Part shown: positions 15,642-64,000 of the stretch, in pieces
Numbering within the stretch: position 1 is the stretch's first letter
Layout: each line of letters begins with the position of its first letter
Source: Psammoneis japonica
Taxonomy: Eukaryota
Length of the DNA: 64,000 nt
Direction of reading: 5' to 3'
NCBI GenBank assembly: GCA_008632985.1
Contig: QPGO01000204.1
Span: 1 to 64,000, forward strand
Translations under genes and position numbers: made by a program
Notes under the pieces: generated by a model
Database searches by the model: none
The model's input: the letters and a program-made list of their open reading frames with translations, nothing else
Told to the model about the DNA's origin: nothing

Positions 15642-15647
15642 CTCCCC
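15642..15647 (-). other. Polypurine tract (GGGGAG on the minus strand)
   Basis: ctcccc directly abuts the 3' LTR, which is the canonical PPT position. Confidence 0.75.
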
Positions 15648-36273: not shown

Positions 36274-36879
36274 GAACGAAAAGAGCGTGACAGATTGTGG
36301 AGCTCAAAGCCAATGCCAGACATGTCAAAACAACCGCAACACGAAAACCTGTTGTGGTTGATGGTGGAACAGGTGAGGACACATTTTCTGCTGGCTCCAG
36401 AACACACAGAGCTGGAATTGAAACCGAAAACTGAAGAGACTCAACTCATGTGCGATGATCGCCTCTCTTGCTGGAAGCAAAAATCTCATGGGCCATGAGG
36501 CACAGGAAGAATTCACAGAAACGCACCCACAAGCAATGCATGAGATTGCAACTTTGATTGGTGGCAAATCTGTTCTTCATTGGGTCCATCACTGCAAATG
36601 TGCTGCGAAATTGAAACAAGACAATTTCTCTCATTTGAAGAAGATGAAACAGAAGATGGGCTCAAGCCTGCACGCAAAACATGTGGCTTCGTGCGGCCAT
36701 TGTTTGGCACAGCTTTCCACAGTTTAGATTCATCCACAAACCAGGCACTCATGGGACCAACATTGTTTTGTCATTGTGCATGTGAACAAGTGCCAACGCT
36801 GCTGCCCCCCCCCCCCCCCCCCTTCAGAAGCTGCCCGACTGTGGCTGACCCAGCTCTTGTTGAAATTCTTCTGCACTTG

Positions 36880-38420
36880 GCTTGAAAGGTCTCTCCCACT
36901 GTCACAGCAGAGAGCAGAAGCGGAGCAGATTTTGGTGGAAATGTTGAGGTCCAGTCTGACGTGCTGCATTGATGTGCATCATCCTTCCATCAGAGAAACT
37001 GATGGCCTGACATGAATGGCTTGAGAGAGAGCTCCTCATTCTTCATGTTTGTTTGAAAGAGACAAAAAATCAAGGAACAAGGAGGCAATTTCAGAAGCAC
37101 TGCCACAAAACACAGTTCAATCTCATTCTCCTTTTTGTCAACTCCTTCTGTTGACAGAGATGCTTTGAGGTGATTGCTGGCCTCTCTTCCTGCCAAGTCC
37201 ATTCAGATCATCTGCCCACCCACCCTCTCAATTTGGTGCTGTTGGCCCTGTGGTGGAGGCACTGAGGATTCTAGATTCCTGCCCCAGCTTGAGTGGGTGG
37301 TGCTGCACCAACACCAGCAAACCAAGAAGTGCTGAATTGCTGCCAACACAACAGTTGATTGGCCTGAGAGAGTGCAAGGGGACGAGCTGCCAAAGTGGCA
37401 GCAGCCACTGTCACAGTGGAGTGTGGAAGTGGGAAGCATTTTGGCAGAAACCTTGAGGTCAAGTTTGCCTGACATGCTGCGCTGATGTCTGTCCTTCTGT
37501 CATGGAAACTGACATCCTGACATGATTTTTTTAGAGTGAGCTCCTCATTCTTTGTTTGCTTCAGAATCAAAAAATTTGCAACATCTAAAAATTTGCAACA
37601 GATTCTGAATCCCTGCACAGTTGCTGCATGGCAATTCATGACATGACCTTTGTTGCTCTCTAAGAAGATCATCTTTGCTGCACAGGCAACATCCTCTTTG
37701 GTGCAGCGCAAGGTGATGGAGCTTTTTTTACTTTGATTGAGAAAAGAGAGGCGGCGCAGGAGAAATGACGAGAAGTTGTTGTTTTCAAAGGAAATTGCCT
37801 TCTTGTGACAGCAACTCATGTTGACGCATCGCAAGATTTCAACAAAAATGACCTTTTTGGACAATTGCGCCACCTTTCCTCGCAACAAACAAAACATCAC
37901 ATGGCTCTTTGTGATCATGACAATCTGATTGGTTTGTTGTTTTGTGTTGCTTGCAAACCCTGTGGTTGTTGAAACAGCAGCATTTGCTCATTTGAGGCAA
38001 AAAATGAAGCACTCTGAGACCTTTCAGGTGCTTTTGTCATGAAAAAATTAAAGCTGTTTGTCTTCATAAATTGGTTGGCGAAACTTGCAAAACTTTGCAT
38101 TTCAGCAGTTTGAGGGGGGCAAAGAATCAAGAAGCAAGGAGGCAATTTCAGGAGCATTGTGCCATGGAACACAGTTTGGCACACATCTCATGTGTTGTGC
38201 AAATGTGCACACAGCAGGGCAATGGATGGCATTGCCTGCAAAAGTCTTGGACACCCACCACCCGTGCTCCCACTCATGATTCTGGATTCCTTTCCTGCCT
38301 TGAGTGGGTGGTGTGCCAACCCAGTGTAAAAGCACTCACTGCCAACACCACAGTTGACCAGCCTGAGAGAGCACAAGGGGATGAGCCACCAAAGTGGCAG
38401 AGCAGCCACACAACTCCGTG
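36880..38420. repeat. Diverged, interleaved duplicated blocks
   Basis: 37267-37410 resembles 38278-38410, 37065-37118 resembles 38120-38178, and 36880-37050 resembles 37400-37560. Copies differ by TG<->CA swaps (gagagTGcaagggg vs gagagCAcaagggg; gagcTGcc vs gagcCAcc). Confidence 0.7.
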
Positions 38421-38449
38421 TGAATGGGCAATTTCACAGGCATGACATT

Positions 38450-39422
38450 TTTGCATGAGACATCCCTTGGGTGACAACCATGCCAGATTTTGGAGCTTGC
38501 AATGTCATGTTGCAGCAATGCTCCATCAGAGGTTCCCACATTTGCCCCAGATGAAGATGGTGCATCTGCTCCAACCTGGGCAAGTGCCAAAGCTCCATCC
38601 CCAAGGCATTGGAAGCTGCTGTTGGAATGCAGCACTGGAGGACTTGTGCACCAAGAAGACATGGGCTTGTTTCTGATTGATGTTGTGGTTCAGCATGCCC
38701 TTTTTTGTGAGAGACTGTGAGAGTCAGTCTTTGGTGAGATTGTTGATCTTGTGTTGCAAGCTCTCTTGGAAAACTTGAAGCAGGATCAGATCACTGGTTC
38801 TTGCCTCATGCTCTGGAGCAAGTGCTCTTCTTTTGTTGCCCACATGTGCTGCTGCTCATTCTTCTTGAAATGTCTGACTGGAGCAATTGACTTATGATCT
38901 TTGACTGTCAAGGCATGTTGCCACTTCACTTGGCAGCAGCAAAGCCCATGCCCAATGCCCTGCAGGCTCTCCATCAAAACAAGCACTTGAGCAACATGGG
39001 CTCTGCCCAAATGAGTCAACCTTTCTTTTTGTTTGGGACAAAAGTGGTGGAAAGCAAAAGCAATGTGATTTGTTTGTTTTGCTGAGTGGTCATCCTGGGC
39101 AGGCATTGGCTCATCCAGCAACATCTGGTGGTTGGCTGGTGACACCACACTGGTGTGCCATTACATTGTGTCATCTGTGAGAAGCAGCAAAAGACAGCTG
39201 TGGAAGGTTGTTGCAGATTCAGTTGCTGCTCTTGATCCAAAGACAACAAGAGTGTTCCCACACTTGCTGGCTGTGGCAGCAGCTCCCAAAAAGCCTCTTT
39301 TGGGCATCAAGAGAATGTCAAACAGCAGACTGGATGCAATGTTTGAGTTGGCTCATGTTCATCCAGAGCTGCTTCAGCCAGGAATGCGCCCAAGCAATTT
39401 TCTCCCCAAACCAATGCAGTGA
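38450..39422 (+). pseudogene. Decayed ankyrin-repeat-like gene
   Basis: DCQGMLPLHLAAAK ankyrin motif, plus a C-terminal DPKTTRVFPHLLAVAA...LDAMFELAHVHPELL segment resembling diatom ankyrin-like proteins. Multiple stops and frameshifts. Confidence 0.5.
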
Positions 39423-39999
39423 CTGAGAAGTGTCTGAGAAGGCTGTGCTCTCATGCTTGTCATGCACGCAGAGAAAGCATGAGCCATGGAGCACTGCACA
39501 CATGTGCACATCACCTGCCATGTGGCAGATTGCAGCAACCTGAATTTTTTTCTGAATGAACAAAGGTGCTGGCAATGGGAAGGGGAAAATTCAGCATTGG
39601 AGCACAAGCTTCCAACCCATGTGAGTCATTTGCATTTTTATGTTCACCTGGGGGGTGGGGGGTGGGGTGGGGTGGGAAAATGACCTGGGTCATGACCAAA
39701 GTGTTTCCATGTGCTCATGCCACAACAGCCCCAAATTTCTGCACAATTTGAGCCAGCGCAACTCAACACTCTGTCCCAACCTTGTTTCTTGCCATTGTGT
39801 GCCTGCTTTCCATCAATGTTTGTCTTGAGGAAGAAGAGTCCATCACCACAGCAGGCAACAAACTCAAGCATGCTCCAACAACCTCTTCAAAAAAACTCAA
39901 GCATGCTCCAACAATCTCTTCAAAAGAGCTTGATGCCATGATGGGCCAGCTGCCAAGCACACCCCACCCCCAACAATGATGTTCATGCCCACTTTTAAG

Positions 40000-41620
<1,621 letters not shown>

Positions 41621-44019: not shown

Positions 44020-44558
44020 GCTGGCCGGGTTCGGACAAATCGACCAGGAATTTGTGTGTATTCGTACTTAAGAAAATTCCACAGTGGACAAATCGACCCC
44101 ATGTTTTTGTGTTCTTAAAATCGATAGTGGACAAATCGACCACCACCATAAACTCCTGGTAGATTTGTCCACCCCATGTTTATGTGTTCTTAAAATCGAT
44201 AGTGGACAAATCGACCCCCTACATAAACTCCTGGTCAATTTGTCCACCCCATGTTTATGTGTTCTTAAAATCGATAGTGGACAAATCGACCCCCACCATA
44301 AACTCCTGGTAGATTTGTCCACCCCATGTTTATGTGTTCTTAAAATCGATAGTGGACAAATCGACCCCCTACATAAACTCCTGGTCAATTTGTCCACCCC
44401 ATGTTTATGTGTTCTTAAAATCGATAGTGGACAAATCGACCCCCACCATAAACTCCTGGTAGATTTGTCCACCCCATGTTTATGTGTTCTTAAAATCGAT
44501 AGTGGACAAATCGACCCCCACCATAAACTCCTGGTCAATTTGTCCGAGCCCGGCCGGC
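44020..44558. mobile_element. MITE/foldback-like element with ~34-bp TIRs and an internal 75-bp tandem array of palindromic units
   Basis: The left end gctggccgggttcggacaaatcgaccaggaattt matches the reverse complement of the right end at 30/34 positions. Units start at 44126, 44201, 44276, 44351, 44426 and 44501. Confidence 0.8.
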
Positions 44559-44742: not shown

Positions 44743-45788
44743 ATGATGGACGATCCCTATGATGACTTTGATCCTCGCAACTACGTGTATGGGGCTGATG
44801 AAGAAGCGGAAGAAGTTGTTTATCCGGAGGAACTCGGTGCGACAAAGATCGAAACGAATGTCTACGAACGTAAGTTGTCATTGAACCTCAGTCAAGACGT
44901 CAACCACAGTAACTTTCAAGTTTATCCGGAGGAACTCGGTTCAACAAACAACGAAACGAGTGTCTACGAACAAAAGTTGTCATTGAACCTCAGTCAAGAC
45001 GTCAACCACAGTAACTTTCAAGCATCCCAGCAGCATCTGCCTGCTTCTTCATTGCAACCGCGACGGGCTAGAAAACGGCAACGTGCGCAGCCCATACCGC
45101 GTCAGAGTCACAACCAATACGACGACTCGCAGGCCCAAGATTATTCTGGTAACGAGGAAGAAGATATTTTTGCTTCAGTGAGGTCGTTTCTGAAAAACCA
45201 ACAAGCTCCAGACATACCGTGTGTCGCTAAGGAAGCAATTCCAACACCAGAAGTAAATGCAACTAACGATGCTTCCTCCTCAGTCCCGGACTCTCAAGTG
45301 GCAAATGCGGACACCATGACAGAAGTCGTCGCTCAACAAGAAAAACATGATCCTGTCGACGAAGAAAAGGTGAAAGAACCTGATACGAATCCACTTTACG
45401 CGAGGAAAATGCATGGCTTTAATCCAGAACATCAAGTTGCTGGTGATTGCTACTGGATTTGACGCACACTGGAGGCGGTATCCAATTAAGCTGTGGTATG
45501 ATAAAGGCCAAAGGTCGCGACACAACGGTGGTGGAGGCGCTTGTACCAGCTGTCTTGATTCACCCGATCGGCTCTGATCTGCACGCTGAGCGCTGCATCC
45601 TTGGGAGACGTAAGAATGGCCTGAAGCGCTCGATGAATTTGCGTTTCACGTACATTATCTCCAGTTTTCACGCATCTTTGTCGAATAAGTTTGATCAGCC
45701 AAGTATTATGCCCAACAAATCTCCACCGATCTGCAATTGCCGGACTGGCAGCGCCAACACAGCAGTACACGGCAATATCCCACGATGA
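44743..45788 (+). CDS. Hypothetical acidic protein with a 102-bp internal tandem duplication, possibly disrupted near 45460
   Basis: ORF from ATG 44743 to 45462 with VYPEELG...HSNFQ repeated twice, and a possible continuation in another frame to 45788. No family recognised. Confidence 0.4.
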
Positions 45789-46685: not shown

Positions 46686-48527
46686 TTACTCGACAAACTC
46701 CTGCAAGAGAGATACACCAATGAAGTTGCGTCCATGGCGGCTGATCCAATCTTGGTCAAAGCCAGAAGGAAACTTGCGTTCCGGCAACGACAAATAGTAC
46801 ATGAACATGGGGACAAAAACTCCGCAATCACATCCTAGAAAAATCGGTACGCAAAAGGAGATGAAGTGAGTTCCAAAGGTTCAATCCAAGTACAGCCATG
46901 CTTATTCGACTTAATTGACACGTACCGGTGTCCTGTTGGGGAGTATCATCAATGGGCGTCTCGATCAGTTTCCACTTGCGCGAATTAGGAAGCGACTTGC
47001 CCTTTTTCTTGTTCTTGTATTCGTCACGGAGGTAGCGCTTGAGTTTGGCCAAGATATAGGGGTAATGGTCACCAAGAGAGTCAAAGATTTGAATCTTCTC
47101 TTCCCGAACAAAGATGGCAGCCAAAATCCAATGGGTGGAGCGGACATGGATTGGAATCAAAACAATGTTCTTGTCCAAAATACCTGTTGTGCCAAAGCAA
47201 TATGTGAGAAGGAGAGACACGACAGGATTAAAACAGTACCAGCAAAGACACCACACTCACCGTCCTTCTTGGTCCAATTCTCAACCCTCTTGTAGTCGTA
47301 CGACGTGGTATTGGGGCAGGACTTGGAGAGCGACGAGTAGAAGTGTGTCGACATGATCTTGATGCCACCAGGGATCTTGACAGACTCATCACGCTTTGCC
47401 AAGAGTTTACCGAAGCTATCAATAATGACATCGTTGACCCACACCTCATCTTTCAAAGTCTGGAGCGCCCTGCCTGTCAAGAACGGTTTCTTGAGGATGT
47501 TGTTGGTGTACTGTGGGCCCATGCGTTCACGAAACTGTCTCACCCTCGTGGTATCCAGATCAGTGGACACAGCCTTACCAATGAGACTTTCATCATGATC
47601 GTGAGAGCCGGTGCTCTTAGCCATGCCCGTGGTGGCGGTAAGGGCGGTGGCGCCAGCATCATCCAAAGATAGCGAGGCAACAAAACTCTTTCCTGATAGA
47701 ATATCATTGAATTTCTGCTCCAAACCGTGAGCGACAACACTGTTGACTTGATTGAGCGCCTCCTCGACATTGTCAATCCGGTCGTTCAACATGCTAATGG
47801 CCGCGTTGGTAGCTTGCTGGGCTCGGAAAAAGTCTTGATGCTGATAGCCAATGGTAGCCAACTCTTCCCTCATGGCCTCCACACTGGCGTTGGTTTCTTT
47901 GAACTTGGCTTCATGTTAAATAACTTCGTTCATGAGCTGAGCCAATTGTTCTTGCAGATCGGCATTCATCAATGCGACTTTGTTCAAGTCGGTTGTGTCA
48001 TCGATATTGACATCTTCAATACCGAGCTGTTGACACATGGCCACGGTAGCAACACCCAACTCTGCAAAGGCTTTCAAGTCCCAATCCTGGAGGAACTTGC
48101 TTGCAGCGACACAGAATCGACCCATCACATGGTTGTTGAGGATTTTGTTGAACTGTTCCTTTTGCCTTTGAGCTTTAAGGTTGTTGAATGAATTCAATTT
48201 CTCAGCCATATCTGGGTCATTGACAAACTGGCGGAGGAGGTAGTTCTTGGCTTCCATGTGGTCCTCCTTGCTGTCTTTGGCCAATACACATTTGGGCCGA
48301 CCATGGTCACAAGACGAGACATCCTCCACCTTTCCGTAGTAGAGTCGGTTTGTCTCCTCACAGATTCCAAACAACTTTGGATTGGGGAAGTACTTCATTT
48401 GGAACTTTTGGCAGCGCGCACCGTTGACGTAAATGGTTGCGGTTGGAATTGCCCCATTTTCAAGGGCCTCTTCCACCTGCAGCTTCTTGACATCGCGTTC
48501 GGCGCGGGTAAGATCAATGCCCGTCAT
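46686..48527 (-). pseudogene. Ulp1/SENP (peptidase C48) SUMO protease gene with an in-frame TAA at 47916-47918
   Basis: Motifs WVNDVIID, STHFYSSL, IPIHVRSTHW (His), FDSL (Asp) and spliced QQDTGCDCGVF (Cys), with two GT-AG introns. The upstream coiled-coil ORF is in frame but separated by one stop. Confidence 0.8.
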
Positions 48528-48709
48528 GGTTGGCGTGGATGTTTGGATGGATTCGTTTGACGTTGCTTACGTTTGGGAATGGAATGATGCTGCTGCTATC
48601 CTGGATCGATCCGTCGTTGTTTGATGATCTCATCTACATACCGGCACCGTCTGCTACTTAACTGCCGGTGTTCATGCTGATTTTATGTAACCTATTGCCG
48701 GCACTGCTA

Positions 48710-49466
48710 TCACGGAACCAATTTCAAAGCATCTTCCATGTCTTGGAACTCCCAACTGGCAGTGCTGTCACCACCACCATCTCCAACCCATTTGCCTTGG
48801 CTGAAAAAGGTGTCGGATCGTAGCGACACAAAGGGTTCAATCTCCAACGCGTCTTTTGCATTCCTGACATCTTCATGAATTGCAGCAACTAAATCAGGAA
48901 AGGACGGAAACTTTTGCTCATTTCGAAGAAATCCAATGAGAGACAATTTCATCGTTTCGTTGTAAAAGTCCGACATGACTTGGCTTTCTTCGAGCATTAG
49001 ATGAGCTTCCACAATCTTTTCCTTGTTTTTCCTGTCCCTCAAAAGTGGGAGAGCATCCCACATTGACAACAGCTCGAAGCTTGGTGTTGCGCAGCTTGTT
49101 TGTACTTTTGCTTGGGTCTTCGACAAGTGCCCACCCAAAGCACACACCCGTGTCTACACGGTCGAGTGCACTCGCAAAACGTGACGAGGGCAAGTTGGCC
49201 GTAGGGAATCCAAGTTTCTTTCCTCCTCGGCCGCATCCAGAATCAACGGGTCCTCGAAGCCGAACTGTTTCCTTGAGCGGTTGAGGGGGAGATGTTTCTT
49301 GCTCAGCAGCACAGGTGTCAGACGCGAGAAAGGAGACGACTCTCGAGCTACATCGTTGAACACACGTTGTGGGTGACACAACAACAAACGCTGATGTTGT
49401 TCTCTGGCTCAAGAACTGGGCACAGAACAACATGAGCAGCCAAAAGAAGCTGTGCAGCACATGCAT
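48710..49466 (-). pseudogene. RFK: Riboflavin kinase with a signal peptide and SAF plastid-targeting motif; frameshifted and Tyr>Cys mutated
   Basis: Motifs GRGGKKLGFPTANL, TGVCFGWA, VNVGCSPTF, IVEAHL, DFYNE and FLRNEQKF. A +1 A in a run at ~49028 shifts the frame. Confidence 0.88.
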
Positions 49467-49929
49467 GTTGAAGGATCAGTCCATGTGGTTGCCTTTTTGC
49501 GCTGCCTCGGTCCCTTGTATCCCGCCAGAATCGAAGCTCGCGTGTGCGCGTGTGCCGGCAGCTTCGTGCTTCGGTGCGTCTCTTCCAACGTGTTCAGACC
49601 TCCCAAGCCGGGAGTGCTCCAAGCAGATGACACCTCAGACAGCACAGGAGGGCGAGCAGCAGCTCGCACCATCGAGCAGCAATGCAGCATTTAATCAAAA
49701 GCCTTTCACAAAAACACAACTGACCAAATTATGAGCTGTCTGCTTGTGGCCAGGCCAAAATCTGGTGAGTGCGACTGCTGGAGACAACTCGCAGCGTGGG
49801 AAATCCACGCCACCTGGTGCACCGGAGGAGTCACCAAGTTCTCAACAATCAATCTTGCACCAACTTAGGCATTGTAACATTCTTTGTGGCACGTAACAAC
49901 TGTTGTTGAGCTCTGACAACACCGGTGCC

Positions 49930-51150
49930 GGTGTGTTTGCCAACGTGATCAGAAAATTACGTTTGGGGCCATGGCGGACAGTTTCTACGAGTGCATGCTC
50001 AAGGTGTGGTTGCAGGGTGGAAAGACGGAACCAATGCACCGAAAAATGTGTGACAAGGCGATCCAGGGCATGCATGATGAATTGCTTCACACGTCAACGC
50101 CGTCCGGTCTCACCTGCATTGCCGACAATCTCAGTGTGCTGAACCGAACAGGAAAACCAGAGGCACCGTGGGAGCTGGTATATGCGCACGTAGAGTAGAT
50201 TTGTACGCTTTTCTCCCACTGGTGGTGCCAGTGTCATTTGGTTATTTTTTAAACCCTGTCTCGGTACACGTCATTGTATCCTGACTCTCCCACTCGTCGC
50301 AGGCACCTGGTATGGGCAGTGCCGCACGGCGGACATTATATTTATGTAACGATTTGTCATAGGGAGACAATCAAGATGGCTGCAACACATCAACTAGCGG
50401 AATTCTCGGTCGAACTCGACTTGCCTTATATGTATATTGAAGTTGGTTGTATTGGGCATATGTGCGCCATAGGAGGCGACTTTTTGGTAGTACCTATATA
50501 TGTGGATAGGGCCATCTAGAGTAGGATGATGGACTTTTGATAATTTTAAATTTAACGAACCGAACAGGAAAACCAGAGGCACCGTGGGAGCTGGTATATG
50601 CGCACGTAGAGTAGATTTGTACGCTTTTCTCCCACTGGTGGTGCCAGTGTCATTTGGTTATTTAAACCCTGTCTCGGTGCACGTCATTGTATCCTGACTG
50701 ACAAGAACAGTGGTCGCATCGATCACAAGATGGACCATTTGGTTTGCTTCATGGGAGGTGAGTTTTTCGCATTTCTCCCGTGTTGTCTGATGCTGGTGGC
50801 ATTGTTGGTCCTCATTTTCAATCCCATGGCAAGCGGTCGAGTCCATGTTCACCCTCAATCAACTCACGGGTGATCCAGTGTGCCGAGAATGGGGGTGGGA
50901 AATGTTTTCTGCAATCGAGCGGCACTGCAAAACCAAGATTGCCTGTGGACAGTTGAACAATGTGCAAGACGTGAACGGACCGCCACAAGACAAGATGGAG
51001 CCCTTCTTCTTGGCAGAGACTCTCAAGCATTTGCATTTGTTGCAGGACCCAGATGCACCCGTGGACATTTTAAACAAGCATGTCTTCAATGCAGGAGCAC
51101 ATCCAATGCGAATCTTTCCAGCAATTGACAAGGAAGGGAAGCAAGCAGTC
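49930..51150 (+). pseudogene. GH47 alpha-1,2-mannosidase fragment, interrupted by an insertion
   Basis: Motifs FGAMADSFYECMLK, MDHLVCFMGG, AVESMF, REWGWEMF, DKMEPFFLAETLKHLHLL and HVFNAGAHP. Confidence 0.9.
50129..50699. mobile_element. 571-bp non-coding insertion with a 5-bp TSD (GACAA) and ~145-bp direct repeats (TRIM-like)
   Basis: GACAA at 50124-50128 and 50700-50704; removing the insert restores IAD-KNSGRIDHKMDHL. Direct repeats at 50141-50286 and 50557-50699. A purine run (gagtgggag, minus strand) lies next to the first repeat. Confidence 0.8.
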
Positions 51151-51391
51151 AAGCAGGCCCAGCTCCATGCTCTGGCAGATGGCCCTCTGCTGTCAGAGAG
51201 AGAAGATTTGGGGCTGCGGTGGTGCGACTGGGGCCACTGTGTGTTTTGACGATGTTGTGTTCAACACAAAGAGTCGACTCTCTAAAACAACTGCCTGTTC
51301 ACAAGCACTCATGCACACAGCTCCACCTGCCCATTTGCAAGCGCCGAGAGTCAGTCGTCGTCGTTGGGATGTCGATCGACGCGGTGTTTGG

Positions 51392-51685
51392 GCACTGGTT
51401 TTGATTGCCCGAGTCAATGCCGGTGAACAATTGTTTTCGCCGTTGCTCAAAACCATTGAGGCCATTTCGTCACAACAAGCCAGAGCATGGGCAGCACTTG
51501 TTTGTTCCCATCGTGCCGCAGCATTTGCAACAAGACCTGCACTGGTTTTGATTGCCCGAGTCAATGCCGGCGAACAATTGTTTTTGCCGTTGCTCAAAAC
51601 CATTGAGGCCATTTCATCACAACAAGCCAGAGCATGGGCAACACTTGTTTGTTCCCATCGTGCCACAGCATTTGCAACAAGACCT
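51392..51685. repeat. Tandem duplication, 2 x 147 bp
   Basis: Copies start at 51392 and 51539 and differ at five positions, four of them CG vs TG/CA. Confidence 0.9.
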
Positions 51686-54462
51686 TGCAGGGTGTGCTGG
51701 AAATTCGAGTGGAGTGCCAGCAGCCATGCCTTTGGATGTGAATGGAAAGGAAACGCGAGGCATGCCCGCATCGCATGCACTCAACAACATTCCAGACTTG
51801 TGTTCGAGGAGTGTGCTCATGGAGACATCAAACAAACGGGTCTCCCTTGGGCTGGAGGCAGCCACAGTTTCTCTCTGTTGCACTCATGGGGACCATTTTT
51901 TTGTGCTGCTGGTTGCGCCTCTTAAGTTCTTGGCATGGCCTCAGGGGAGATGCACGTGATGAATCTTGGCTGAAGGGCGACAGACAATGCTGGGGGCAGG
52001 ATCCGAACATTCTTTTCTGAATCATGGCGCGTCTTCCAACGGGAGCTTTTGGTCCTTGTTTGGCATGTGGATCATGTGTCACTGGACGGTCTTGATGGCA
52101 CGAACCAATCGACTTCGACAAGTTTGGGTGCGGATGCAGAACAAAAAAAAGAGCTCGATTCCCCAGGCGAGTGCATCATCGTGAAATTGAGCAGCAGCGT
52201 GTCGCGTTTCATGGTGCTTTTACGCCATGTCGCTGCACACCGGACCAGAATGATGGAGACATGCGAGTCGATGCAGTTGTGCCTGCTTCTACCACTGCAT
52301 GCAATCTGCATGCCACCAACCATCGTGAGGGATGACCAGGGATGACGCTGCGCAAAAGGTGCCATCCACACTCTCTGTGCGAGAGGGACTCGGCAAACCT
52401 TGATTGATCCATGAATGGCCAACAAGACCAAAACAGCGGACCTGCCAAGTTGCACGCGTTGAACGGTGGCATGGACAGCAGCTCCAATGCCTTGGTCAGT
52501 CACTCGTCCTGCCAATCTCGGGCGGAAGACTCGTGAGTTTGCAGTTGACAAGGCAGAGATCTGCAAGACCAGTCAGCAAGCCAATGTTGGGCAAGCAACG
52601 TCTCGAGCGAGTGACAAGTGCTCACATCGAGAATGCGAGGCTGGCTTTGCATTCCAATCTTGTTGGGAAGCGAAGGCAAGTGTAACAGGTGCAGCTTCAC
52701 AAAGGCTTGGCATCAGCATGTCTCGGCAGGCACGGACTTGAGCTGCTTGCAACCAGAGAGACTCAGTCATTGAACCTCTGGGAGCCACTTCGCGTCTGAC
52801 GTCAAGGCTGCAATGTCCACATTTGAAAAATCGAGCGAAACATCCTGCCTTGCTCGTCGTGTTTCATTGTGGTGGCCAATCTCGCTCGTGACACGGGCTT
52901 GGCCCATGCGGCAAGAGCAAGTGTGGGGCTTGGCACAATTTTGACTCGCTGCAAGCAGAAGTGCAACACACGTTCAATCCGTTCAATGCGAGATTCTCTT
53001 CCATGGTAGAATTGTGGATTGTTGTGCTGTGTTTTGATGCACATTGGAGAGCGACACCCGAAATCGCAGTGTGGAAGCAGGAAAAAAGAGTTCTTGGCCA
53101 AGAGATGTCTTGTTTGGAGAATGCGAGCTGCTGTCGCCGCCGTTTGAGTCAATGCTTCGCCGGGTTGGGTGAGTGCTTGCCAAACGTTTTGACTGCTTTT
53201 GGTTGCTCTGCCAACCATCTTTCTTTGTTGTCAAGGCTTTCTCGGCGATCGGATGATCATTGAATGGAGGCGCGGGAGGAGGGAGAGGCCAGTGGATTGA
53301 TTTGTCTGCTGGGACTGCGAGCTTCGTTGGGGTTGGGACATTGAATGGCATCAAGATGGGGCAGTCGGCCTCGAAGGATTGCGTGGCCCTCTGAAGGCAC
53401 TCGTGGGTTTTGGGTGGTGGACGCAAAGGTCCACCTAGAATCGGGTCGCCACTGTCAGGCAACGACCGTGCGTCCGATTCTTGCTTGGGCTCCTGTCCGA
53501 CGCTTCTGCACTTGGCAACCCAGTGGTCCATTTCTTGTGGAATTTGCGACAAAGAGGGGTGTGGAAACTTGACTGTTGACCCTGTCTTCGAGTGGGACAC
53601 TTTTTCGTAATCTTGCTGCTTGCAAACGCATCGTGTCTGGGACCAAGAACGTGAAGCAAATTCCGATTTCTAAAGCTGCAGCAGCACATGCATTTCGGCA
53701 GAGGGGAGCATTAGCGGCTGGGGTGATTTGCCAAGGCTTGGGCACTGTCCAGCTCTCAAGAGGGACAAAAGCCTGTTTCCACATGACTCCAAACCAATGG
53801 CGTGACTCTTTTGCATTGAAGTGTTGAACCGGGACATCACAAAAGATCTGTGGACATGGACAGCTCGAAAACCATCATTCCACTTCTCTTGGAGCCTGGC
53901 AGATCTGGCCAAATTGATGAAGCAGGGAGTGTGTCATCTCCGTCACGAGGACACCAAGCATGGCAATGTGGGACCTCTTGCTGTGGCACTTGGCAGCTGG
54001 ACCGCACTGGACGGGACTGCTGCAACGAAGCAAATGAATGACTCGTGATCGCTTCCTGTTGCCTTTGTCAGTGACATTGAGTCGCTGTTTTGACGATGAG
54101 CAGCACTCTATGTCGCACATTGTGTCTTGTCAATGAGCATCTCCAGGTGACAATCAACAGGGTGCGTGGTGCCAAGCGGTGTGTTCTTTGAACACGCACT
54201 CATTTGTGATGATTTCTCATCATTGATCTGACGATTGTGGAGCTTGTCTTTCATGCTCTCTTCCTCCCCTGGGATTGCGTGACAGATCGCATGAACTCTC
54301 GGAACCGATGGGTTGTGCGACTTGACAGAATCGTCACTGTGAGTCGCACCAACTTAGTGTGGTTCGGGCATCAGAGACACCGACCTCGTTTGAGTTCTTG
54401 GGCGCATTCCGCGATTCCAGAGGTGAGAAAGAAGAACGGTTAGACAAGCTCCACGCAAACCT

Positions 54463-56376
54463 TTACAACATCTCACTCTCCATTGCATCCTCCTCCTCTG
54501 CGTTCACAGGGTCATCAGTCTTCAATGTTTTGGCTCCAATGCCATGAAGCTTGCACATCCGTTCATGTTTCCTCTGGTGTCGGATCTTTTCAATGGACTT
54601 CCGTTTCATTGTTTGAATGTTCTTTTTGACATTCTCATTGGACTTGGGAGGGGACCGCTTGAGCTGATGACGGGGTGTTGGTGCTTTCTTTCGTCGAAGC
54701 AACTCAAGAGCGAAAGGTTTTGGTTTGCCGGGCTCGTGGAACTCAAGCTTTCTCCTTTTTCTTGGAGCTTCCTTGGCTTCAATGCAACGTTTCAATGACT
54801 TGCGCCATTCATTCAAAGACGGCTTTTTGGCTTGCGACGAGCTTGTTCCAGGTTGGTCGTGGAGCGACGGAGTGCTTGTTTCAGGCTGTGTTTGGAGCGG
54901 CGGAATCCTGTTGCTTGCTGCGAGAAGTGTTTGGATCATCTCGGCAATCACTGCAATGCTTTCCACGGTGCTTTTCTTGGCGGGCATTTTCATTGCCAAG
55001 TTGTCGTTGCACTCACTCTCTTTGTCTGTGCCATTCAAGCAGGGAGTCGAGAATTCATAAAAATTGGGATGATGGGTGCTGAAAACGCCACCGACATCCC
55101 TCCAACAGTGGAGTTTGAAAAGGCTTCTGAAACAGTTCAACTTCTCCTCATTCTCGACACGGGTGCGATGTTGTCGGCAAGCGACCTGGATCCTCATGAC
55201 GGCGGCGACTTTCTTCTTGTGTTTGCGACTCTTTGCAATGAAGCTTTGGAAGGTGACCTGGACAGTTGCAGCAGCACCGTTCATCGCGGCAACTCACTGC
55301 AGGATGTTTTGGAAAGTGCAATGTTTTCGGCAAGCAACCTGGATCCTCACGACGGCGGCGAGTTTCTTGTCGCAGTTGCGGCGCTTGACAATGAAGCTTT
55401 GGAAGGCGACCTGAACAGTTGTGGCAGCAGCGTTCATCGTGGCAACACGTTGCAGGATGTTTCGAAAAGCGCGTTGGATTGTTTTGAGCGCGCTCACCTT
55501 TTCGTTAACCATGTTGAAGGCTGCAGGCATGGAATGGACAATCGTGGTTGACAAAACAGGCGATGGAGCCTCGATGAGGGCAATCGGATGGGTGGCGTTC
55601 CGGCGGATTGGACGAGCTTGAGTGTTGAGCGTGAAGCTTGCATTGAGTGGGAGGGAGGGCGTGCACTTTTTCCGATTGAATGCAACGTTGCATCTTTGGT
55701 TGGGTGTTTCCACATTCGTGGCAAAGTCACATGTTGATGGCTCGAGGATCGCCATCACATCGATGGATGGACCCGAGGATGTGTTGCTGCGCTTGAGCAA
55801 AATGTTCACTTGAACGCCTGGAGCGAAAATGCGAAGCTTCTTCTTGAGGTTGTCAATCACGACTTCTTCGAAATCGTCAGGACGCGAGTCGGAGGAGGAA
55901 GGCTTGAACACAAGCTCAACGAGAACCGAGTTTGTAGAATGAGAAACAGCAGCACTGTGGATCACACCAGACACAGTGGTGACCATTTTCTGCGTGTGGG
56001 TGGGAAGGATTTCCGCAACAGCTTGCGCAGTGGCTTCATTGGCGGCGGCAGGAAAAACGTAGATTTTCTCAACACGAGTCTTGACCACAAAACGAGCAAG
56101 ATTCTGAACGTGACATTTGAACCAAGGTGCGGTCAACTTAATGAAGAAGACAGTGTTGCCATTGGAGTGCGGAACAATCGAAAGAACTTCTTGAACAGTC
56201 GGGGCCAGATCAAGTTGAAACGTGCCGACTTGTTCATCGTCGAAAAGCTTCTTCAAAATCAACTTCAAAGCAACGAAAACCGAGAATGCGGCAATGTCAA
56301 CATTGCCGATAAAAGCAACGCCACCGGCAAGGATGGTCGCAAAGAGAACAACAAAGATCATGAGGGAGATCGACAT
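54463..56376 (-). pseudogene. IQ-motif-containing protein gene with an internal ~53-aa repeat and a premature TGA at 55294-55296
   Basis: Motifs TIQRAFR and RIQVACR (twice). The 360-aa and 273-aa ORFs are in frame, and the stop aligns with an Arg codon in the sister repeat. Confidence 0.55.
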
Positions 56377-57156
56377 GGTTGATGCTTGATGACAACAAAA
56401 GACGAGTTGTCCGTTTTGTGAGATGGAGTGGGAAAGCGCAAAGCGTGGAAGATGACATGAGCACTGGTGGCCACGTGGTTTCTACGCAGGTCCCAGAGAT
56501 CACAAAACCGGGACACGTTTTTTTTCTGTTGTCAAAACCTGACCAAAACACCGTTTGGCATCCCTCGGCGCCAATGTCAACACCGTTTTGGAGACTCATG
56601 ACGTGATCAACTGTTGCGATGCCGACAGGTGATGATTTGTGCTGTTGGTGCTTCCTGCGTGTCATCGTCTTACAACTTCTGCTGCCACAACAACTCAGGT
56701 CGAATGTTCTCGGCATCATTGCCCTGCAAACAGCTGCGCACTCTCTGCTGGTGGCGACTGGTGCAAAAAATGTCTTAAATCTCACGAACGCGATTCACAA
56801 ACATTTGATGGCATCACTCGATGAAAAACACAGCAATCCCAAATCAAATTGTCTCAGACTTTTCTAAAGAGATCTCCCTTTGGGTTTGTGATGGTCATTT
56901 CTCGTCAAAAGAATGCTCTGTGCACCCAAATGAAGTTCATTGATCATTTTCTCCCTTCGAGTTGTGATTGTCATGACCAAAATTTAAAAAAACAGCAATC
57001 ACGAGTAAAGCGCCACTCCGACTGAGTTGGTCGCGAACTTTGATTCGCTCGCCTCACTCCACCTCGATCAAAAGTCTCACAATCTGGAAATCTCCCATCG
57101 CCACCTCGCACACTGTTGCGCTGGTCGCGCCTTTCCCACCATCCTGCTCCACCATC

Positions 57157-58635
57157 ATGGACGACGCAACCAAAGCAACCAAAGCAAAGATCATGGAATT
57201 GATCGACGAAGGCACGGAAATGGCCAAAAGGGGCTCTGAGAAGTCTGCGCAAGACTGTGCAAAATCGATGCAAGACTTTGTAGAATCAATGCCACCCTTC
57301 CCCGCCAACATGGACACTAAAGCCAAAGATGAGATCCTCAAATTGTTCAACGATGGCAAGGAAACAGCCATCAGGGTCTCTAAGAAATCTCTGCAAGACT
57401 GTGCAAATTCGATGCCACACTTGACACAAAAGGTCAAAGGCACGTGCATTGCTGAGGAATTGCACGCATCACAAAATGAAGTTTGTCACAAAGCCGTCAA
57501 GGACTTCGTCTCGGCGCATGGTTCGTGCATCGACTTCCTCAAGAAATCCGGGTGCAGTGATGCAGCTGTCATGAAGTTCGAAGAAGCTTCAAAAGTGAGT
57601 GGCCTGCGTCTGTGAATGCATTCTCTTTCATCAACTCACGTTGCTGTCTTTGTGTTTGTTTCATGTTGCCACCAGTTGACGCTTTCCATTGTCGCGCCCG
57701 AACCCAATGATCGCCGCACAGCTCCCGCTCAAGCTCCCTCTGTTGCTGGTGTGACCACCACCGACGATCCGGCTTCCAAGTCCACGACTTTGACCCGTGG
57801 TTCTGACGAAGCTGTTCCTGCCAAGAGGGTGACCAACGCTGATGCGAAAGCTTTCGCCAAGCATGCCGAGCATTGCAGCAAACCCGGGAATCACATTCCA
57901 GCACCCGGTCAAGCTTCCTCCGTTGCTGCTGGCGGGACCACAACTGACGATCCAGCTGCCAAGTCCAAGAAAGCCAAGACTTGCGACATGACCAACGTTG
58001 ACATTGCACTTGATCTTGAAAGCTTCAAAAAGCGTCATGAGAAAGGACCAGAAGATGTTCGTAACATGGAATTTTTAGATTTCATTTTGCGCTTTGGGGA
58101 TTCGGATCGAATCAAAACAGAGGAAGACTTGGAGAGTCAGTTTGGCATCTTGCCTGAAAAAAAATGCCGCGCTGAGGATGTGAAAGCTTCGCAATTGGAG
58201 TGGTCTGAGGCTGAAAAGGCTGGCCACTGCCGAGGAGATGGCAACCAAGGGTGCTCCCCGATGCTTTTGCCAAGGCAACCGCCACACAACCGCATCGTCT
58301 TGAGCTCCAAATCCATCCTGCGTCCACTCGTGGGTCTTTTTGAATGCCAACGAACTGTCGTCGGACGAGACATCTCTCTGGAGGGTCCACGTGGATTCCT
58401 GTCCACATGTGACCTCCACTTCCACATCAAGAACACCAAAGTCTTCCTTGAAGTTTTGGGCTCATGGAAAATGCCAAAGGCTTTGCCGGCAGAGGTGAAA
58501 TGTAAGGAAGACGAAATTAAGCTTTACAAAGAGTCGGAAACCATTGACAATGAGGGGAACATTCGCGACTTCTTCGGTCACTGGAATGGACCTATTTTTC
58601 GTGCGGCCAAGTGTGAACAGCGAGAAGTTGACTGA
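57157..58635 (+). CDS. Hypothetical two-exon ORF (57157-57594, 57676-58635) inside the TA-erased domain
   Basis: An in-frame GTGAGT...CAG intron joins the 191-aa and 339-aa ORFs. Internal repeats are present (TKAK..QDCA twice, TTTDDPA twice). It is probably a mutated copy. Confidence 0.45.
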
Positions 58636-61599
58636 GTGATTCTGTTTAGAGGTGGATTGGCACAGCGTTGGGGGGCAGTGTCGAGTTCAGTGAGTGCATC
58701 TGTGTGTGGTGAAGCAACGGCGTCGCATCCGGCATCCGGTTCCCACTGCACCGTTGGATTTCTGTTGAAGGTCGTTTGACAATTTGCACAGGCAGTCATT
58801 GTTCAGAACAGCGTGCGCCAGTGCCAAACAGCAAACGTTGAGCTGCACTGCATGGGAGCCATTCTTCAGCAAACAGTGAGCACTCATCTTCAAAAGCATC
58901 ACTGTCATCCTGGAACAAAAGAAGTCGGCTTTCGATTGATTGCAGTGCAGCAGCTTTGTTGCCTCAGCTGCGCCATGAAATTCGCCACACGTCAAGCTCT
59001 TTGCCAGCTGCGGCAGCATGACAACACGGCTGCGAACCCGGGTCCCAGTGCCACAGCATTAAAAAAGCTGTTGCCCACAACAATGATTCGTTTCTTTTTG
59101 AACACGCACAAGTTCATTGTTCTGCTGAAAACAAGCTGCGGCACGCTGGTTCTCACAGACGACCACTTCGCATCATTTGCCACACTGGCATTGAGTCTGT
59201 CGGCTCCCTTTCTCACTTCTTCCCACCACGGTCACCACCAGTGCGACCCTCACATCCAGTTGTCATGCCAATGTCTGGCTGCAAACGCCAAAGATCGCAC
59301 ACAAACATGGTCCCAGCATTCGCTGCAGTCAGGTCAAACCCGGGATTCACAGGGCAGCTGCGAGCACATTCCATTGCAATCGACCAAAAGTGTGGCAGGA
59401 CGATTGGCTCCGTGATGAGGCTGCAGCACAAACCCATTCTCTCCGCAGCTCTAGAGAGAGCAGATGCAAGAAGTGGAGGTTCGTCTGTGGTGTGATGCAC
59501 AGAACTAAAGCACAGCTGGTGCAACTTGCTCTTCGTTTGATTGGACAAAAGCATTCACCGCAAGGCTCGTCATTGCAGACCAGTTGAGATGCATGATCGA
59601 GTCTCCTCGTGCCCAAGTTTAGATGGAGACGCACCGTGCGATGCAAGACTCCCCAACTGACAAGACCTTAGACTTGTGCCCTCTCCACGAGCGGGTGCTC
59701 CTGGACCAAGATGGCTGGTCATTGTGACCAGTCAAACTCATCGGTTTTCTTCTTGTCACTTTTCCATTCTTTGTTGAGACAGGAACCCTGATCAATGTGA
59801 TTCAAGAGACTGAGGATCGAACAAATGTCCCATCCTCTTTGTCTTGTCTCTACGGCAAAGCTGAAAGAGAGACTGCAGCACAACAGGAACGAACTTTGAA
59901 AGAGGTGCACCGCCCCAGCTGGAAGGATGCGCGCTGGATGACAAGTCACAGGCGACCAGTCGGGCAACGCTTGTCACTGTGTGTGTGGCACAAACCAAGG
60001 CTCCCATTGGCAATGACCATGTGGCGAATGAAAAACAGTGATTTTTGGGAAGTGGATGTCATACGGATTGAAGGCACACGGCCATGCACAAGAAACCAAA
60101 GTCCGACCAAATCCACATGTGTGGGCACAAAGCGCCCGCACTGATGCTGCAACCGACATGCGCCCTCGCACATCACCCAGCACTGCACATTGCAGACATG
60201 GGGTGACAAAAGAGTCCTCCGGGGAATTGCAATTTGGCATCATTCAAGGAGGGCAACGATTGAAAGCCCTGTGATTGGGCATGAGACTTTCTCGGAGTTG
60301 TTTTGGTTGCCGTTGAGGAAAGCAGCTTTTGGGGCAGGTTTGGATGCTTCTGGTTTTCCAGGTGTGGCAAAAGGAGGCCCATTGTGTGGAGCTGGTGGAT
60401 TTGTGGATGCAATCGTGCCATGGGGGTCAACAGTGCTGGACACTGCTTTTCCTTTGTGTTCCATCCTTGCAGCCGGACTGCCTCCACTTTTTGGGATTGC
60501 AACAAAGCCGAGGTGTCTTCCTTGACTGCAATCTTTTTCTCCGTTCCTTTTTGCGCTTGAGACTTTTTGAGTGGTTCCTTTTGGGCCTGCTCGGGTGAGC
60601 TTGAGCTCTGTAAACCACCGCTGTTTGACGAGGACAGAGAAGGCACTGCACTCTCACGAACGTCCTTTTTTGATGGACTCTGAAACATCTGGCATTCCAA
60701 CACCGCCCCATTTGGACATTTTCGTTCCAACAAGCTGCAAGGACTGAAGCGATGCGAGTGAAACACCAGAAGGATCTTGCACATCAGAAACTGCTTCTCA
60801 AATCCCTCGTCATCACAAACAACACCCGCGTAGAATTCGTTTGGATCCTTGGAACTCACCACTGCGCCCACACACACTGCAGTCCCAACAAATTCCCTTG
60901 TGCGAGACGTTCCCGGCTTGAGCAATGACGACAACGCAACTGTTGTAAGCGACCAAAAACATCATGCCAATGCGGGGGAAACACCTCGCTCGTACAATCT
61001 ACAGAGAGTTTCGTACAAAAAAATTCGAAAATTCAGAAACTCCCTCCAACACGGTCTGTCCATGCATCATGCGCCCACCCCCTTCTGGAAACTGCTGCTT
61101 CTCTTTGAAGCGCTTGCACTTGCTCCGCCAACACGCTCTCCGACTGCCATCCCCAAGAAACGCCCAGCTACATCCTCCCTTGCCTCTGCCAGTGCCCACC
61201 TCAAACTGTTCCGACAAGGCTGCATCTGCAAAAATTGTGTGATGTTGCATGCACTGCTGCCCCCCCCCCCCCTTCTCACACCACCACCACTCTCAAGCAC
61301 CTGACTTCTCTGCCTCCACATGGCCCAAGCATCCACCAGTGCTGACAACTTCGGTGCTGCCTGTCACCGTGTCACCCTCCAACCTCCCTGTTGCCACCAT
61401 TGATGACACCCGACTCCCTCTCATTCAGGCGCACTTCACCCCGCCAAGAAGAACACCATGACCACTGACACACGATGCCCCACTCCTGCACCATCCCTGC
61501 CTCCTGTCTCTGACAACAAGCTCCCAGCAGCTCTGAGCAAATGAAAACCTGGAACCACAGCCAGGCCATGCACTGACTCCACTGATCTCCTCAAAGGAT

Positions 61600-63600
61600 G
61601 CACCCCATTCAAAGCCACTGCTCCAACCAAGATGCATCTCTGCCCACACCTCCCCACCTTGAAAGCATTCTTGCTCCTCCTCCAAACAAATTCCATTCCA
61701 AATAAGATTCAACCCCTCATTGCTGCCAACTGCTTTGTTGCTCCACACAAGGACCCCAACAACCTTGCCAAACTTTGCCCATCGGCTGTGGAGCTGCAGT
61801 CTGCACAGCCGGTGTGCCTCACCATGACCACCAACACACCCATCATCACCCAACACCTGCTCCTTTATGGCCAACTCAGCACAGGCATCAACAGCGGCCT
61901 TGACTGCCTTGTCCATGTCACACATGCAAATTTTGAATGCTGCCTCAGCGCTGACACACCAACCCATGCCTTTCTCACCCTTTGCCTCTCCAACTTCTTC
62001 AATGTGACACCTGTCGAGAACTCCTCAAAACAGCACACCTGCTTCTGGCACCTCATCTCCATCTTCCACCTTTGCTGCAACACCCCCAATGCCCATTGGT
62101 GCTGCAACTCTGGTGGCTTCTGGCAGTCCCTGCCACAGCCCAATGGCTTTTCCCAAGGATGCCCACACTCACTTCTCCCTTTGCTGCTGTCATCCACAGT
62201 GTCATCCTCAAGAAACTCAATGCCAAACTCCACCAACAACTCCCTTCCTCTGACATCATGTCTGCTGCATTTCTCATTGATGACAACAGCATTTGGAAGC
62301 TGCCACACAGAGCTGGTCCCAAAAAACAGAGTGTGCCTCAACCGCTCCAAGACCCACACACTCACCTCTGTCTCAGGGACCAACCCCTTGCCAAACTTGC
62401 CCCCTGGCAAGTGCTGCCACAACAGGAATCTTTCGAAAATGACCCGTGACGTAAAACGCACAACACAATTGAGGATGTCTGCAGAATCCAAATGTTTTGC
62501 ACTGAAACTGTTGTGTTTGCACAATTTGTGCAAAAATGGACTTGACTTTTGTCGGGTCAGGCGCATTTTTGCAAATGTGTTGAAGAAAAATGCGCCTGAT
62601 CAGAAAAGAGTCACGTCTGTTTTCACTGAGGACAGACAGACAGACTTTTTGACAATTGTCTTGGCACTGTTCTGCACATTTCCAGATGAATGACTCTACA
62701 GCGTGAAAGATTGCTGTTGCCTTTAATGAGCCCTTGCTTTTCTCAACCCCACCAACAACCCTGCCCTCCACCCTGAAATTGCCACTGGCCTCCGCTTCCT
62801 TGGCCAACTCAACAGAAGCACTGACTTTGCCCACACTCACCTCCACCAAAAAGCTTCTGCTGTGTTCCATGCCAGCAATCTTGGCCAGCTCTCCTCCTGC
62901 CTCCACCACCCCCTCAAACCAAAAGCTCGCTGTGCCACATGTGTGCTGCACATGTGCCACCTCCTCACTTCACAAAAGGACCAGCGCCTCTGCAACACCC
63001 TCCTGCAACACCTTGCAGCACAATCACAGCCCTTGCTGCCTCACACTCAGCTCTTCTTGCACACCTCCCTGCAGCCAATGGCATCATCAGATGTCACTCC
63101 ATCTCCGCCTCTGTCATCCCCTTTCTCATCTCCCAACTTGCCCACTCCCTGTGATGTGCCACACATGGACCCATGGCCACCAACAACAACTCCCTCAAAC
63201 TTCCTTCCTTCTGCATGTGCTCCCTTTGCACATGGGCCGCTTCTTGCCACCCCCTGCATCTTTGCCAAGTCTTCAAACTCTGTGGCTTTGCCACAATGCC
63301 AATGCTTGACCCTGCTCCACTCTCCCATGCTGCTCTTGTCAAGACTTGCCTGCTCCAAAACCTCCTCCACTCTTCATGCCACGTTGACTTTCTCAATGCA
63401 ATGCATCCACCATCCCAAGCCAAGCTGATGCTTGTGTCTGATCATCAGGCACTCACTGGCCTGTTGAACCACACTCTGGCTGCATCATCATGGATTCTGT
63501 GGCACCAAGTTGGCAATTTTGTTGTCCCCAAGAAGCCACTGCAGCTCAGTGGGATGTCTGATGGCTTGACAACAAGAATCCTGGGATGGTTGTGAACTCC
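61600..63600 (+). mobile_element. Decayed CRE-clade-like non-LTR retrotransposon reverse transcriptase
   Basis: Motifs FVAPHKDPNNLAKLCPSAV (canonical AL.K...RPIAV), GQLSTGINSG, LCLSNFFN (D..N.FN), GFSQGCPHS (QGCPLS), FLIDD, LNRSKT and GLRFLGQ. Heavily degraded. Confidence 0.65.
62420..62719. mobile_element. ~300-bp MITE-like insertion with 15-bp TIRs inside the RT
   Basis: caacaggaatctttc (62420-62434) matches the reverse complement of gaaagattgctgttg (62705-62719) at 14/15 positions. The AT-rich interior interrupts the C-rich RT sequence, which resumes afterwards. Confidence 0.65.
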
Positions 63601-64000
63601 TCCATGGATTCCTTTGTTACTTCAACCATCTTCTCCTTGGATTTTGATCGTTGTTTGGACGTTTCTTTTTGACATGCCGGTGTTATTTCGTCATTCCGAA
63701 GGCACTGCTTTCGTGCACCATGCGGATAAATGTCCATTTTTTGTGTTTTGTTTCACCATCGCTTCAACTGAGTGCTGTGTGCGGTCGACGTATAGACTCT
63801 ACGATGGAGAGTGTTGGTGTCTCTGGTCATTTTTGTCATTTGCAACAAACGATTGACAGACTGTGTACAACAAGCAGTGCTAGATAGCATGTCCTGAGTC
63901 CTGAATCTGTTTGACAATCGTGCTGTGTATGCTGTGTTTGAATCATCACATCTGCCTTTCATCTGCTGCAAATCGAGTGATGTGGCTGTTTTGTTGGTGG

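Follow-up and report, generated by a model that had tools for sequence, protein, structure and literature searches.

In Neurospora and other ascomycetes, repeat-induced point mutation (RIP) changes C:G to T:A at CpA, which creates TpA. It strikes both copies of a duplication and depends on a premeiotic stage and on RID. When double-stranded RNA from repeats is hyper-edited by ADAR, dense A>G clusters arise in which a preceding U or T is preferred. A third system is described in the main text of a preprint on Bigelowiella natans, where mutation is about 1000-fold faster in two integrated viral regions and consists almost entirely of A>G and T>C changes, each of them at TpA (Mettrop et al., bioRxiv 10.64898/2026.01.13.699255). 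The same main text reports clusters in that genome which are poor in TpA and rich in CpA and TpG, together with some TpA-poor coding sequences with Pfam domains of likely host origin, and proposes DNA adenine deamination with an ADAT2-like candidate (10.64898/2026.01.13.699255). Among the text portions returned by a full-text literature search, the TpA signature was found only in this preprint, with nothing comparable for diatoms. DNMT4 enzymes, which are relatives of fungal RID with a function given as unknown, occur in many diatoms according to the relevant section of PMC9998398. Here we describe a locus in a 64,000-nucleotide stretch of the diatom Psammoneis japonica (the window; assembly GCA_008632985.1, contig QPGO01000204.1, positions 1 to 64,000) in which positions 49930-51276 are a truncated, dead partial copy (pseudogene) of a GH47 alpha-1,2-mannosidase gene.

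The history that we consider probable, with good confidence, is a partial GH47 copy made at the DNA level, which was then hypermutated at TpA while its paralogue was spared, and which later received a repeat insertion. The parts of the locus are as follows.

49930 to 50128, plus strand: GH47 piece A, residues ~416-475 of the homologue P0006, seen by tblastn, Pfam and the paralogue contig; TA observed/expected ratio (o/e) 0.18.
50129 to 50699, no strand assigned: repeat-element insertion of 571 bp that separates piece A from piece B; GACAA is duplicated at its sides (5 bp, 50124-50128 and 50700-50704).
50700 to 50758, plus strand: GH47 piece B, encoding DKNSGRIDHKMDHLVCFMGG, P0006 residues ~473-494; zero TA left.
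50759 to 50830, plus strand: intron remnant of 72 nt, its donor GTAAG mutated to GTGAG.
50831 to 51141, plus strand: GH47 piece C, the C-terminal ~100 residues (P0006 ~564-665); Pfam 103.1 bits; TA o/e 0.05.
51142 to 51276, plus strand: 3' flank in common with the paralogue contig (record 10 of sequencing run X2); no TA in 135 nt.

Two reading frames within 49917-51249 were found to match the Pfam family Glyco_hydro_47 (PF01532, curated cut-off 22.9 bits), the first with 40.9 bits over profile positions 205-267 and the second over positions 363-455 of 455. The catalytic domain is incomplete, as only these two parts of the profile and the short piece B are present. When a protein collection was searched for longer proteins, 30 of 187 candidates were GH47 proteins at E <= 0.001, with a top identity of 73%. 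The only informative names among the 30 were a MMETSP transcriptome, its organism name cut off at 'Astro', and Triparma, which together with the copia-type element of the window agrees with a diatom-like stramenopile. Identity to GH47 homologues was 67-75% in pieces A and C. Five of the 30 homologues were used as tblastn queries on the window and were placed at 49947-50126 for piece A, 50694-50759 for piece B and 50830-51141 for piece C. The ~415 N-terminal residues and the 69 internal residues (495-563) that are missing from the copy gave no tblastn match anywhere in the 64-kb window. Piece A also carries a 5-bp indel near 49943-49947, and an Rfam search of 49400-51400 gave one match only, at chance level (E = 0.45).

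The remaining coding pieces are altered preferentially at tyrosine. When they were aligned with all 30 homologues (186 aligned residues, 112 columns conserved at >= 90%), 16 of the 112 conserved columns were altered in the copy, and these include eight of the nine conserved Tyr columns compared with 8 of the 103 others (Fisher p = 2.3e-7). The replacements at the eight Tyr columns were always Cys or His. Likewise, at the ten columns where Tyr is in the majority (26-30 of 30 homologues), the copy reads Cys five times (TGY), His four times (CAY) and Tyr once (TAC at 49986). In piece A the changes are Tyr>Cys at 49992, 50049 and 50115 and Tyr>His at 50037; in piece C they are Tyr>Cys at 50881 and 50944 and Tyr>His at 50923, 51028 and 51034, and here Thr>Ala was also observed at 51055 and 51091 through a TA step lying across two codons (T/ACA to T/GCA). 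A sequence-only reading of this DNA had named six motifs with the Tyr>Cys/His signature, four of them as likely examples, and all six were recovered in frame: SFYECMLK, PMHRKMCDK and GLTCIAD in 49947-50126, and DPVCREWG, IERHCK and ETLKHLHLL in 50830-51141. IACGQL can be added to them as a seventh.

An intact GH47 paralogue was found on contigs of runs from the same sample. The search covered three sequencing runs of one sample, the Logan contigs of which were aligned to 49400-51400 at >= 80% likeness; no RNA run containing the window was listed. Run X1 (141 Mb of contigs, the longest 315 kb) is most likely a DNA run, since it reproduces the window and contains non-coding, mutated DNA, its automatic label ('DNA?') being only a guess. 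We infer that X1 represents the genomic gene and X2 a spliced RNA or intron-less form. Record 10 of X2 (1675 nt, depth 245) covers 681 nt of the copy in all, with 7 differences over 49948-50123, 3 over 50700-50758 and 43 differences and 8 gaps over 50831-51276. It has a loose end behind 51276, and the copied segment therefore ends at about this position.

The differences to this contig are strongly directional. Among the 21 listed, 18 have G or C in the window against A or T in the paralogue and three are of other kinds, while 14 have TA in the paralogue against TG or CA in the window. As in B. natans, the changes are almost only A:T>G:C, and the counts over the whole of run X2, written from window to run, agree with this (G>A 25 and C>T 10, compared with A>G 2 and T>C 1, or 35 against 3 in reverse). 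Window G against paralogue A was listed 11 times, ten of them after T (background 0.35, p = 2e-4), whereas window C against paralogue T was listed seven times and stood before A in four (background 0.45, p = 0.38). The enrichment at TA, the absence of which would have refuted the sequence-only reading, is thus present among the listed differences through the G>A class, but it does not reach significance in the C>T class. The paralogue reads TAY at eight of nine mutated Tyr codons, the ninth (50116) lying outside the listed differences, and Tyr or Thr is found in the homologues at ten of these 14 TpA sites, which shows this to be the ancestral state. Three TAs are left in the 681 aligned nucleotides of the copy, where the TpA o/e is 0-0.18 and the TG+CA o/e 1.58-1.74. 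A third form of GH47 contig (depth 53) was observed to join 50058 to 50700, and more than one further GH47 copy may be present in the sample.

The paralogue itself is spared by the process that changes TpA. It holds TA at all 14 listed TpA sites of X2 record 10, which include the synonymous positions 50964, 51039 and 51042, and at all 16 listed sites once the intron positions 50760 and 50800 are counted. These observations bear on a RIP-like process, in which homology would trigger mutation of both copies and the paralogue would have been cleaned afterwards by selection or gene conversion. The start of the mutated stretch at ~48710, about where the copied host-gene DNA starts, would agree with such a trigger. 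However, selection on the protein is of no help at the synonymous positions, TA is also kept in the intron, differences in the reverse direction number only 3 against 35, and the direction of change is opposite to that of RIP. We therefore consider a RIP-like origin improbable, and the prediction that the paralogue should also be hit, which the sequence-only reading had put forward as a check, failed at the listed sites.

Both DNA strands were hit, as the 16 listed TpA-type changes comprise 11 of the TG type and 5 of the CA type in interleaved order. A hand count gave 9 runs among them where ~7.9 are expected, and strand-coordinated clusters of the kind seen in kataegis were not observed.

The short non-coding segment behind piece B shows at what level the copy was made. 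GTGAG is found at 50759-50763, directly after the CFMGG codons, and three X1 contigs that are without the 576-bp insertion run on through 50759-50830, where they read GTAAG. Their differences to the intron remnant are limited to 50760 (G>A) and 50800 (C>T), both of the TpA type. Two of these contigs leave the window sequence at 50830 for ~106 other letters, and in the X2 contig 50758 and 50831 are separated by 209 other letters, which is what the 69 missing codons and the split codons need. The loose end of the paralogue before 50831 completes Leu-Arg-Pro codons and the first letter of a Glu codon. As an independent check, 80 environmental GH47 loci were searched for intron-like gaps; 23 were found in 20 loci, and an intron occupies this exact position in L068 and L071 (ATGGGAG/GTGAG and ATGGGAG/GTAAG, respectively). 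GTGAG is thus the mutated donor of a real intron of the parent gene, of which 72 nt survive, and the copy has lost the remainder of this intron together with 209 nt of coding sequence behind it. The segment 50760-50829 was also considered as a complete small intron and was rejected, as homology to the paralogue resumes at 50831 inside a codon.

Because the intron remnant is common to the X1 contigs and the position of the intron is conserved, the copy was made from genomic DNA and not from mRNA. The retained donor and the absence of an mRNA intermediate had both been proposed from the sequence and are borne out here. The description of the locus as an intron-bearing gene copy stands with regard to the 72-nt remnant only, since the large gap between coding pieces A and B proved to be a later insertion. 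The locus does not have the makeup of a processed pseudogene (retrocopy), as it keeps intron sequence, and no poly(A) or A-run is present in the window sequence at the end of homology near 51276. An edited retrocopy would require adenosine-to-inosine RNA editing of an ADAR-like kind with a 5' U preference, fixed by reverse transcription. A>G after T is the neighbour preference given for ADAR in the main text of 10.64898/2026.01.13.699255, but here the intron remnant is itself mutated, the interleaved TG- and CA-type changes lie on both strands, a poly(A) is not seen near 51276 and the non-transcribed flanks are equally depleted in TA over 13 kb. This origin is accordingly extremely unlikely.

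The 576 bp between pieces A and B are a later repeat-element insertion with a normal TA content. Two X1 contigs and one X2 contig join 50123 directly to 50700, so that 576 letters are skipped and 5 letters fit on either side; GACAA at the end of piece A (50124-50128) is one copy of the resulting target-site duplication. The insertion is built from direct repeats at 50141-50286 (146 bp) and 50557-50699 (143 bp) around 270 bp, and the two repeats differ by one substitution (TA vs TG at 50265) and a 3-nt indel. With 42 TAs against 40.2 expected (o/e 1.05), it accounts for all but ten of the 52 TAs in 49400-51500. Diverged copies of the 571-bp element are present elsewhere in X1, and among 12 listed differences to them seven have window TA against TG or CA and five have window CG against CA or TG. 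The family is thus also targeted elsewhere in the genome, and the copy in the window is young. As the insertion keeps its TAs, the process would be episodic or slow.

Other readings of this insertion were also considered. An intron (GT at 50136, AG before 50712, reading frame kept) was rejected, as the paralogue DNA is without the segment and the 5-bp duplication flanks it. The ends do not resemble those of an element with long terminal repeats (LTR) or terminal inverted repeats, as TG..CA termini are absent and the inverted match is weak, at 4 letters. LTR elements and terminal-repeat retrotransposons in miniature have direct repeats that extend to both ends, TG..CA termini and a target duplication of 4-6 bp. 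A comparison with them found the GACAA duplication and the direct repeats, but the left repeat begins 12 bp inside and the ends read TC..CT. Furthermore, the 3' part of the insertion repeat (50192-50287) resembles 50754-50860, which spans the intron remnant and reaches into piece C, with a score of 39, whereas shuffled sequences gave 19.4 +/- 3.3 with a maximum of 31 among 300.

A TA-depleted block of at least 15 kb has the GH47 fragment at its edge and contains two further features.

48710 to 49524, minus strand: riboflavin-kinase-like copy, another host-type gene copy that bears this signature within the same TA-poor block.
51277 to 64000, no strand assigned: rest of the TA-depleted block, with 65 TAs against 760 expected (o/e 0.09), TG+CA o/e 1.54 and CG o/e 0.65.

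The TpA o/e of the whole window is 0.40 and is very uneven. Gene blocks have values of 0.5-0.8 (0.60 at 23-36 kb and 0.67 at 40-47 kb), whereas values fall to 0.05-0.2, with TG and CA in excess, in the TA-poor blocks (1-1000, 15-23 kb, 36-40 kb and everything beyond ~49 kb). A local block hit on both strands while other genes are spared is also a feature of B. natans, and here the contrast is 0.09 against 0.60-0.67. By part, the TA o/e is 0.17 in the kinase copy, 0.24 in the spacer at 49525-49929, 0 in piece B and 0 in the 3' flank. The kinase copy is matched by Pfam Flavokinase in two frames which meet near 49030, and its GVY motif reads GVC in an alignment to solved RibF. Its paralogue is record 9 of X2 (~94% alike) on 49400-49524, where both listed differences (49452 and 49485) are window TG against TA.

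Over six frames, 51277-64000 has 48 TAA and 35 TAG stops (83 together) against 538 TGA, compared with 201, 220 and 486, respectively, in a gene block of similar size. As TAA and TAG are nearly gone, long open frames of up to 395 residues are expected here by chance, and no credible Pfam family was obtained with the seven long reading frames tested from 51-64 kb or with those from 36-40 kb. CpG decay runs alongside the loss of TpA, with a CG o/e of 0.39-0.90 in the GH47 copy. The heaviest combined decay of TpA and CpG in the window was observed at 36001-40000 (TA o/e 0.05-0.07, CG 0.05-0.51, TG/CA 1.55-1.88). A tandem duplication of 147 bp x 2 is found at 51392-51685 in the TA-poor block, and four of the five differences between its units are at CpG (CG vs TG/CA).

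These surroundings raise the question of what was targeted. The sequence-only reading had held that the mutator is not limited to retroelements and acts on DNA, and the alteration of exon, intron remnant and flank in a copy of a host gene agrees with both statements. The mutator might nevertheless be aimed at transposons, with the GH47 and riboflavin-kinase fragments captured by, or lying inside, a mobile or repeated unit, and its range of targets would then be unchanged. This is possible, although we consider it unlikely. The two unrelated gene fragments stand back to back and are both truncated or frameshifted, the block extends for 13 kb without a recognisable gene, X1 put 53 contigs on the 2 kb of which 31 are under 95% alike, and the spacer at 49602-49925 has other X1 copies that are 89-96% alike. 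A repeated or captured unit may therefore include both fragments. On the other hand, the surroundings yielded neither a transposon protein domain nor an LTR or terminal inverted repeat, and the mutated letters are still host-gene DNA with an intron remnant, so that the process acts on DNA whatever the origin of that DNA. The wider range of targets may also reflect collateral mutation of whatever lies in a repeat-rich block beside a multi-copy spacer, and not separate targeting.

A number of other features were noticed in the window. A copia-type retroelement occupies 15589-21375 on the minus strand, with a long pol-like frame broken by a gap of 432 N and a TA o/e of 0.09-0.21; within it, 19566-20721 contains 383-residue open frames on both strands. 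In an otherwise TA-normal gene block, an open frame contains a 75-bp x 6 tandem array (94% matches) at 44096-44545 and a 102-bp x 2 repeat at 44818-45022. Two adjacent open frames of the same phase are found at 47157-48566 on the minus strand with a single stop at ~47916 between them. Their TA o/e is 0.45, below that of the other gene blocks, which may mean that the mutation process fades out gradually into the flank or that a gene is decaying here.

A different possibility is that silent DNA with modified bases was miscalled or misassembled, so that the pattern would be an artefact, or that ordinary decay was combined with GC-biased gene conversion. In favour of this, 432 N stand in gaps of the window, and a single sample supplied all the runs that contain it. 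However, X1 contigs match it letter for letter at 49602-49778 (177 nt) and 50285-50586 (302 nt) and with 1 difference at 51225-51400 (176 nt), at depths of 27-76. Moreover, a 571-bp island with normal TA interrupts the block, the effect of GC-biased conversion would extend beyond TpA, and the copy shows the truncation, deletion and insertion of a real pseudogene. We regard an artefact or ordinary decay as very unlikely.

Several points weigh against a DNA-level copy that was hypermutated at TpA. X1 is possibly the sample behind the window assembly, in which case its agreement with the window is not independent proof against a sequencing artefact, and the type of X1 is an automatic guess while X2 as RNA is our own interpretation. 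The depth of the paralogue contigs (137-245) is several times that of the contigs that match the window exactly. The tally is a sample of the best-supported differences, beyond which there are 113 further ones over all runs and 49400-51400, some of them from the paralogue contig. Seven of the 21 listed differences are not of the TpA type, the C>T class taken alone has no significant CA enrichment, and 4 of the 18 directional differences lie off TpA and may be ordinary divergence. Only 72 nt of the intron survive, and the fragment was possibly carried here inside a mobile element, as the ~90% likeness of the other spacer copies would allow. Lastly, the locus presents an end state only, in which no enzyme, chromatin mark or ongoing mutation rate is observed.

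With these points taken into account, the hypermutated DNA-level copy remains our preferred reading. The data show that the gene was copied as DNA, in which direction and context the copy changed, that the paralogue was left untouched and in which order this happened. The copy of the intron-bearing GH47 gene is without the first ~415 residues and has lost the rest of the intron and 69 codons. Its TpA steps were changed to TpG or CpA (A:T to G:C on either strand) in coding and non-coding DNA alike, and the process also reached the riboflavin-kinase-like copy and at least 13 kb downstream. The 571-bp repeat element was inserted between pieces A and B only afterwards. The chemistry may be the deamination of adenine in DNA at TpA (to hypoxanthine, giving A>G), by analogy with the proposal for B. 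natans, and targeting was probably by location in silent, repeat-type chromatin and not by the pairing of two copies.

Transposon and viral targets cannot distinguish action on DNA from action through an RNA intermediate, nor can they tell whether foreign sequence or a paired repeat is needed. The GH47 locus can tell these apart because its ancestral sequence is known from the intact paralogue, with the 30 homologues as outgroups. Its contribution is a copied host gene whose intact parent is known and which is proven to have been copied as DNA, and the order of events can be read from it directly, as the copy came first, the hypermutation second and the unmutated repeat insertion last. The mechanism is thereby narrowed to a DNA-level activity directed by position or chromatin, for which this locus of ~1.3 kb is a compact test case in a diatom. 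As a tentative proposal, this eraser of TpA might be a genome defence by DNA editing that is aimed by place and not by sequence origin or repeat pairing. It would be episodic, rewrite any DNA that lands in such a block and spare the expressed parent; together with Bigelowiella, it might represent an adenine-deamination defence common to lineages of stramenopiles, alveolates and rhizarians (SAR) and the mirror image of fungal RIP.

Like pseudogenes in general, the GH47 copy is a truncated, non-functional gene fragment away from its parent gene, and as part of an intron is kept and a poly(A) tail is absent, it belongs to the non-processed kind. Unlike neutral pseudogene drift, its decay is dominated by one directed class of mutation. 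ADAR acts on RNA, whereas the changes in the window are in genomic DNA, on both strands and with an intron remnant. The locus resembles RIP in its dense transitions at one dinucleotide on both strands of duplicated DNA and in the destruction of gene copies as well as transposons. It differs from RIP in that the copy loses TpA and gains TG and CA, the opposite direction to C:G>T:A, and in that the paralogue is clean.

The comparison with B. natans, as described in the main text of Mettrop et al., is the closest. B. natans is a chlorarachniophyte and the window is from a diatom. The targets there are viral integrants with a TpA Rho of ~0.45, whereas a host-gene fragment with an intron remnant is the target here and is near saturation (o/e 0-0.18). 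The rate there was measured in mutation-accumulation lines, whereas only the end state is known here. A mutated copy is compared directly with its intact parent in the present case, and no such comparison was met in that main text. Like the integrated nucleocytoplasmic large DNA viruses and virophages of B. natans, the locus shows TpA>TpG and TpA>CpA on either strand, in clustered blocks that are enriched in CpA and TpG, while ordinary genes are spared.

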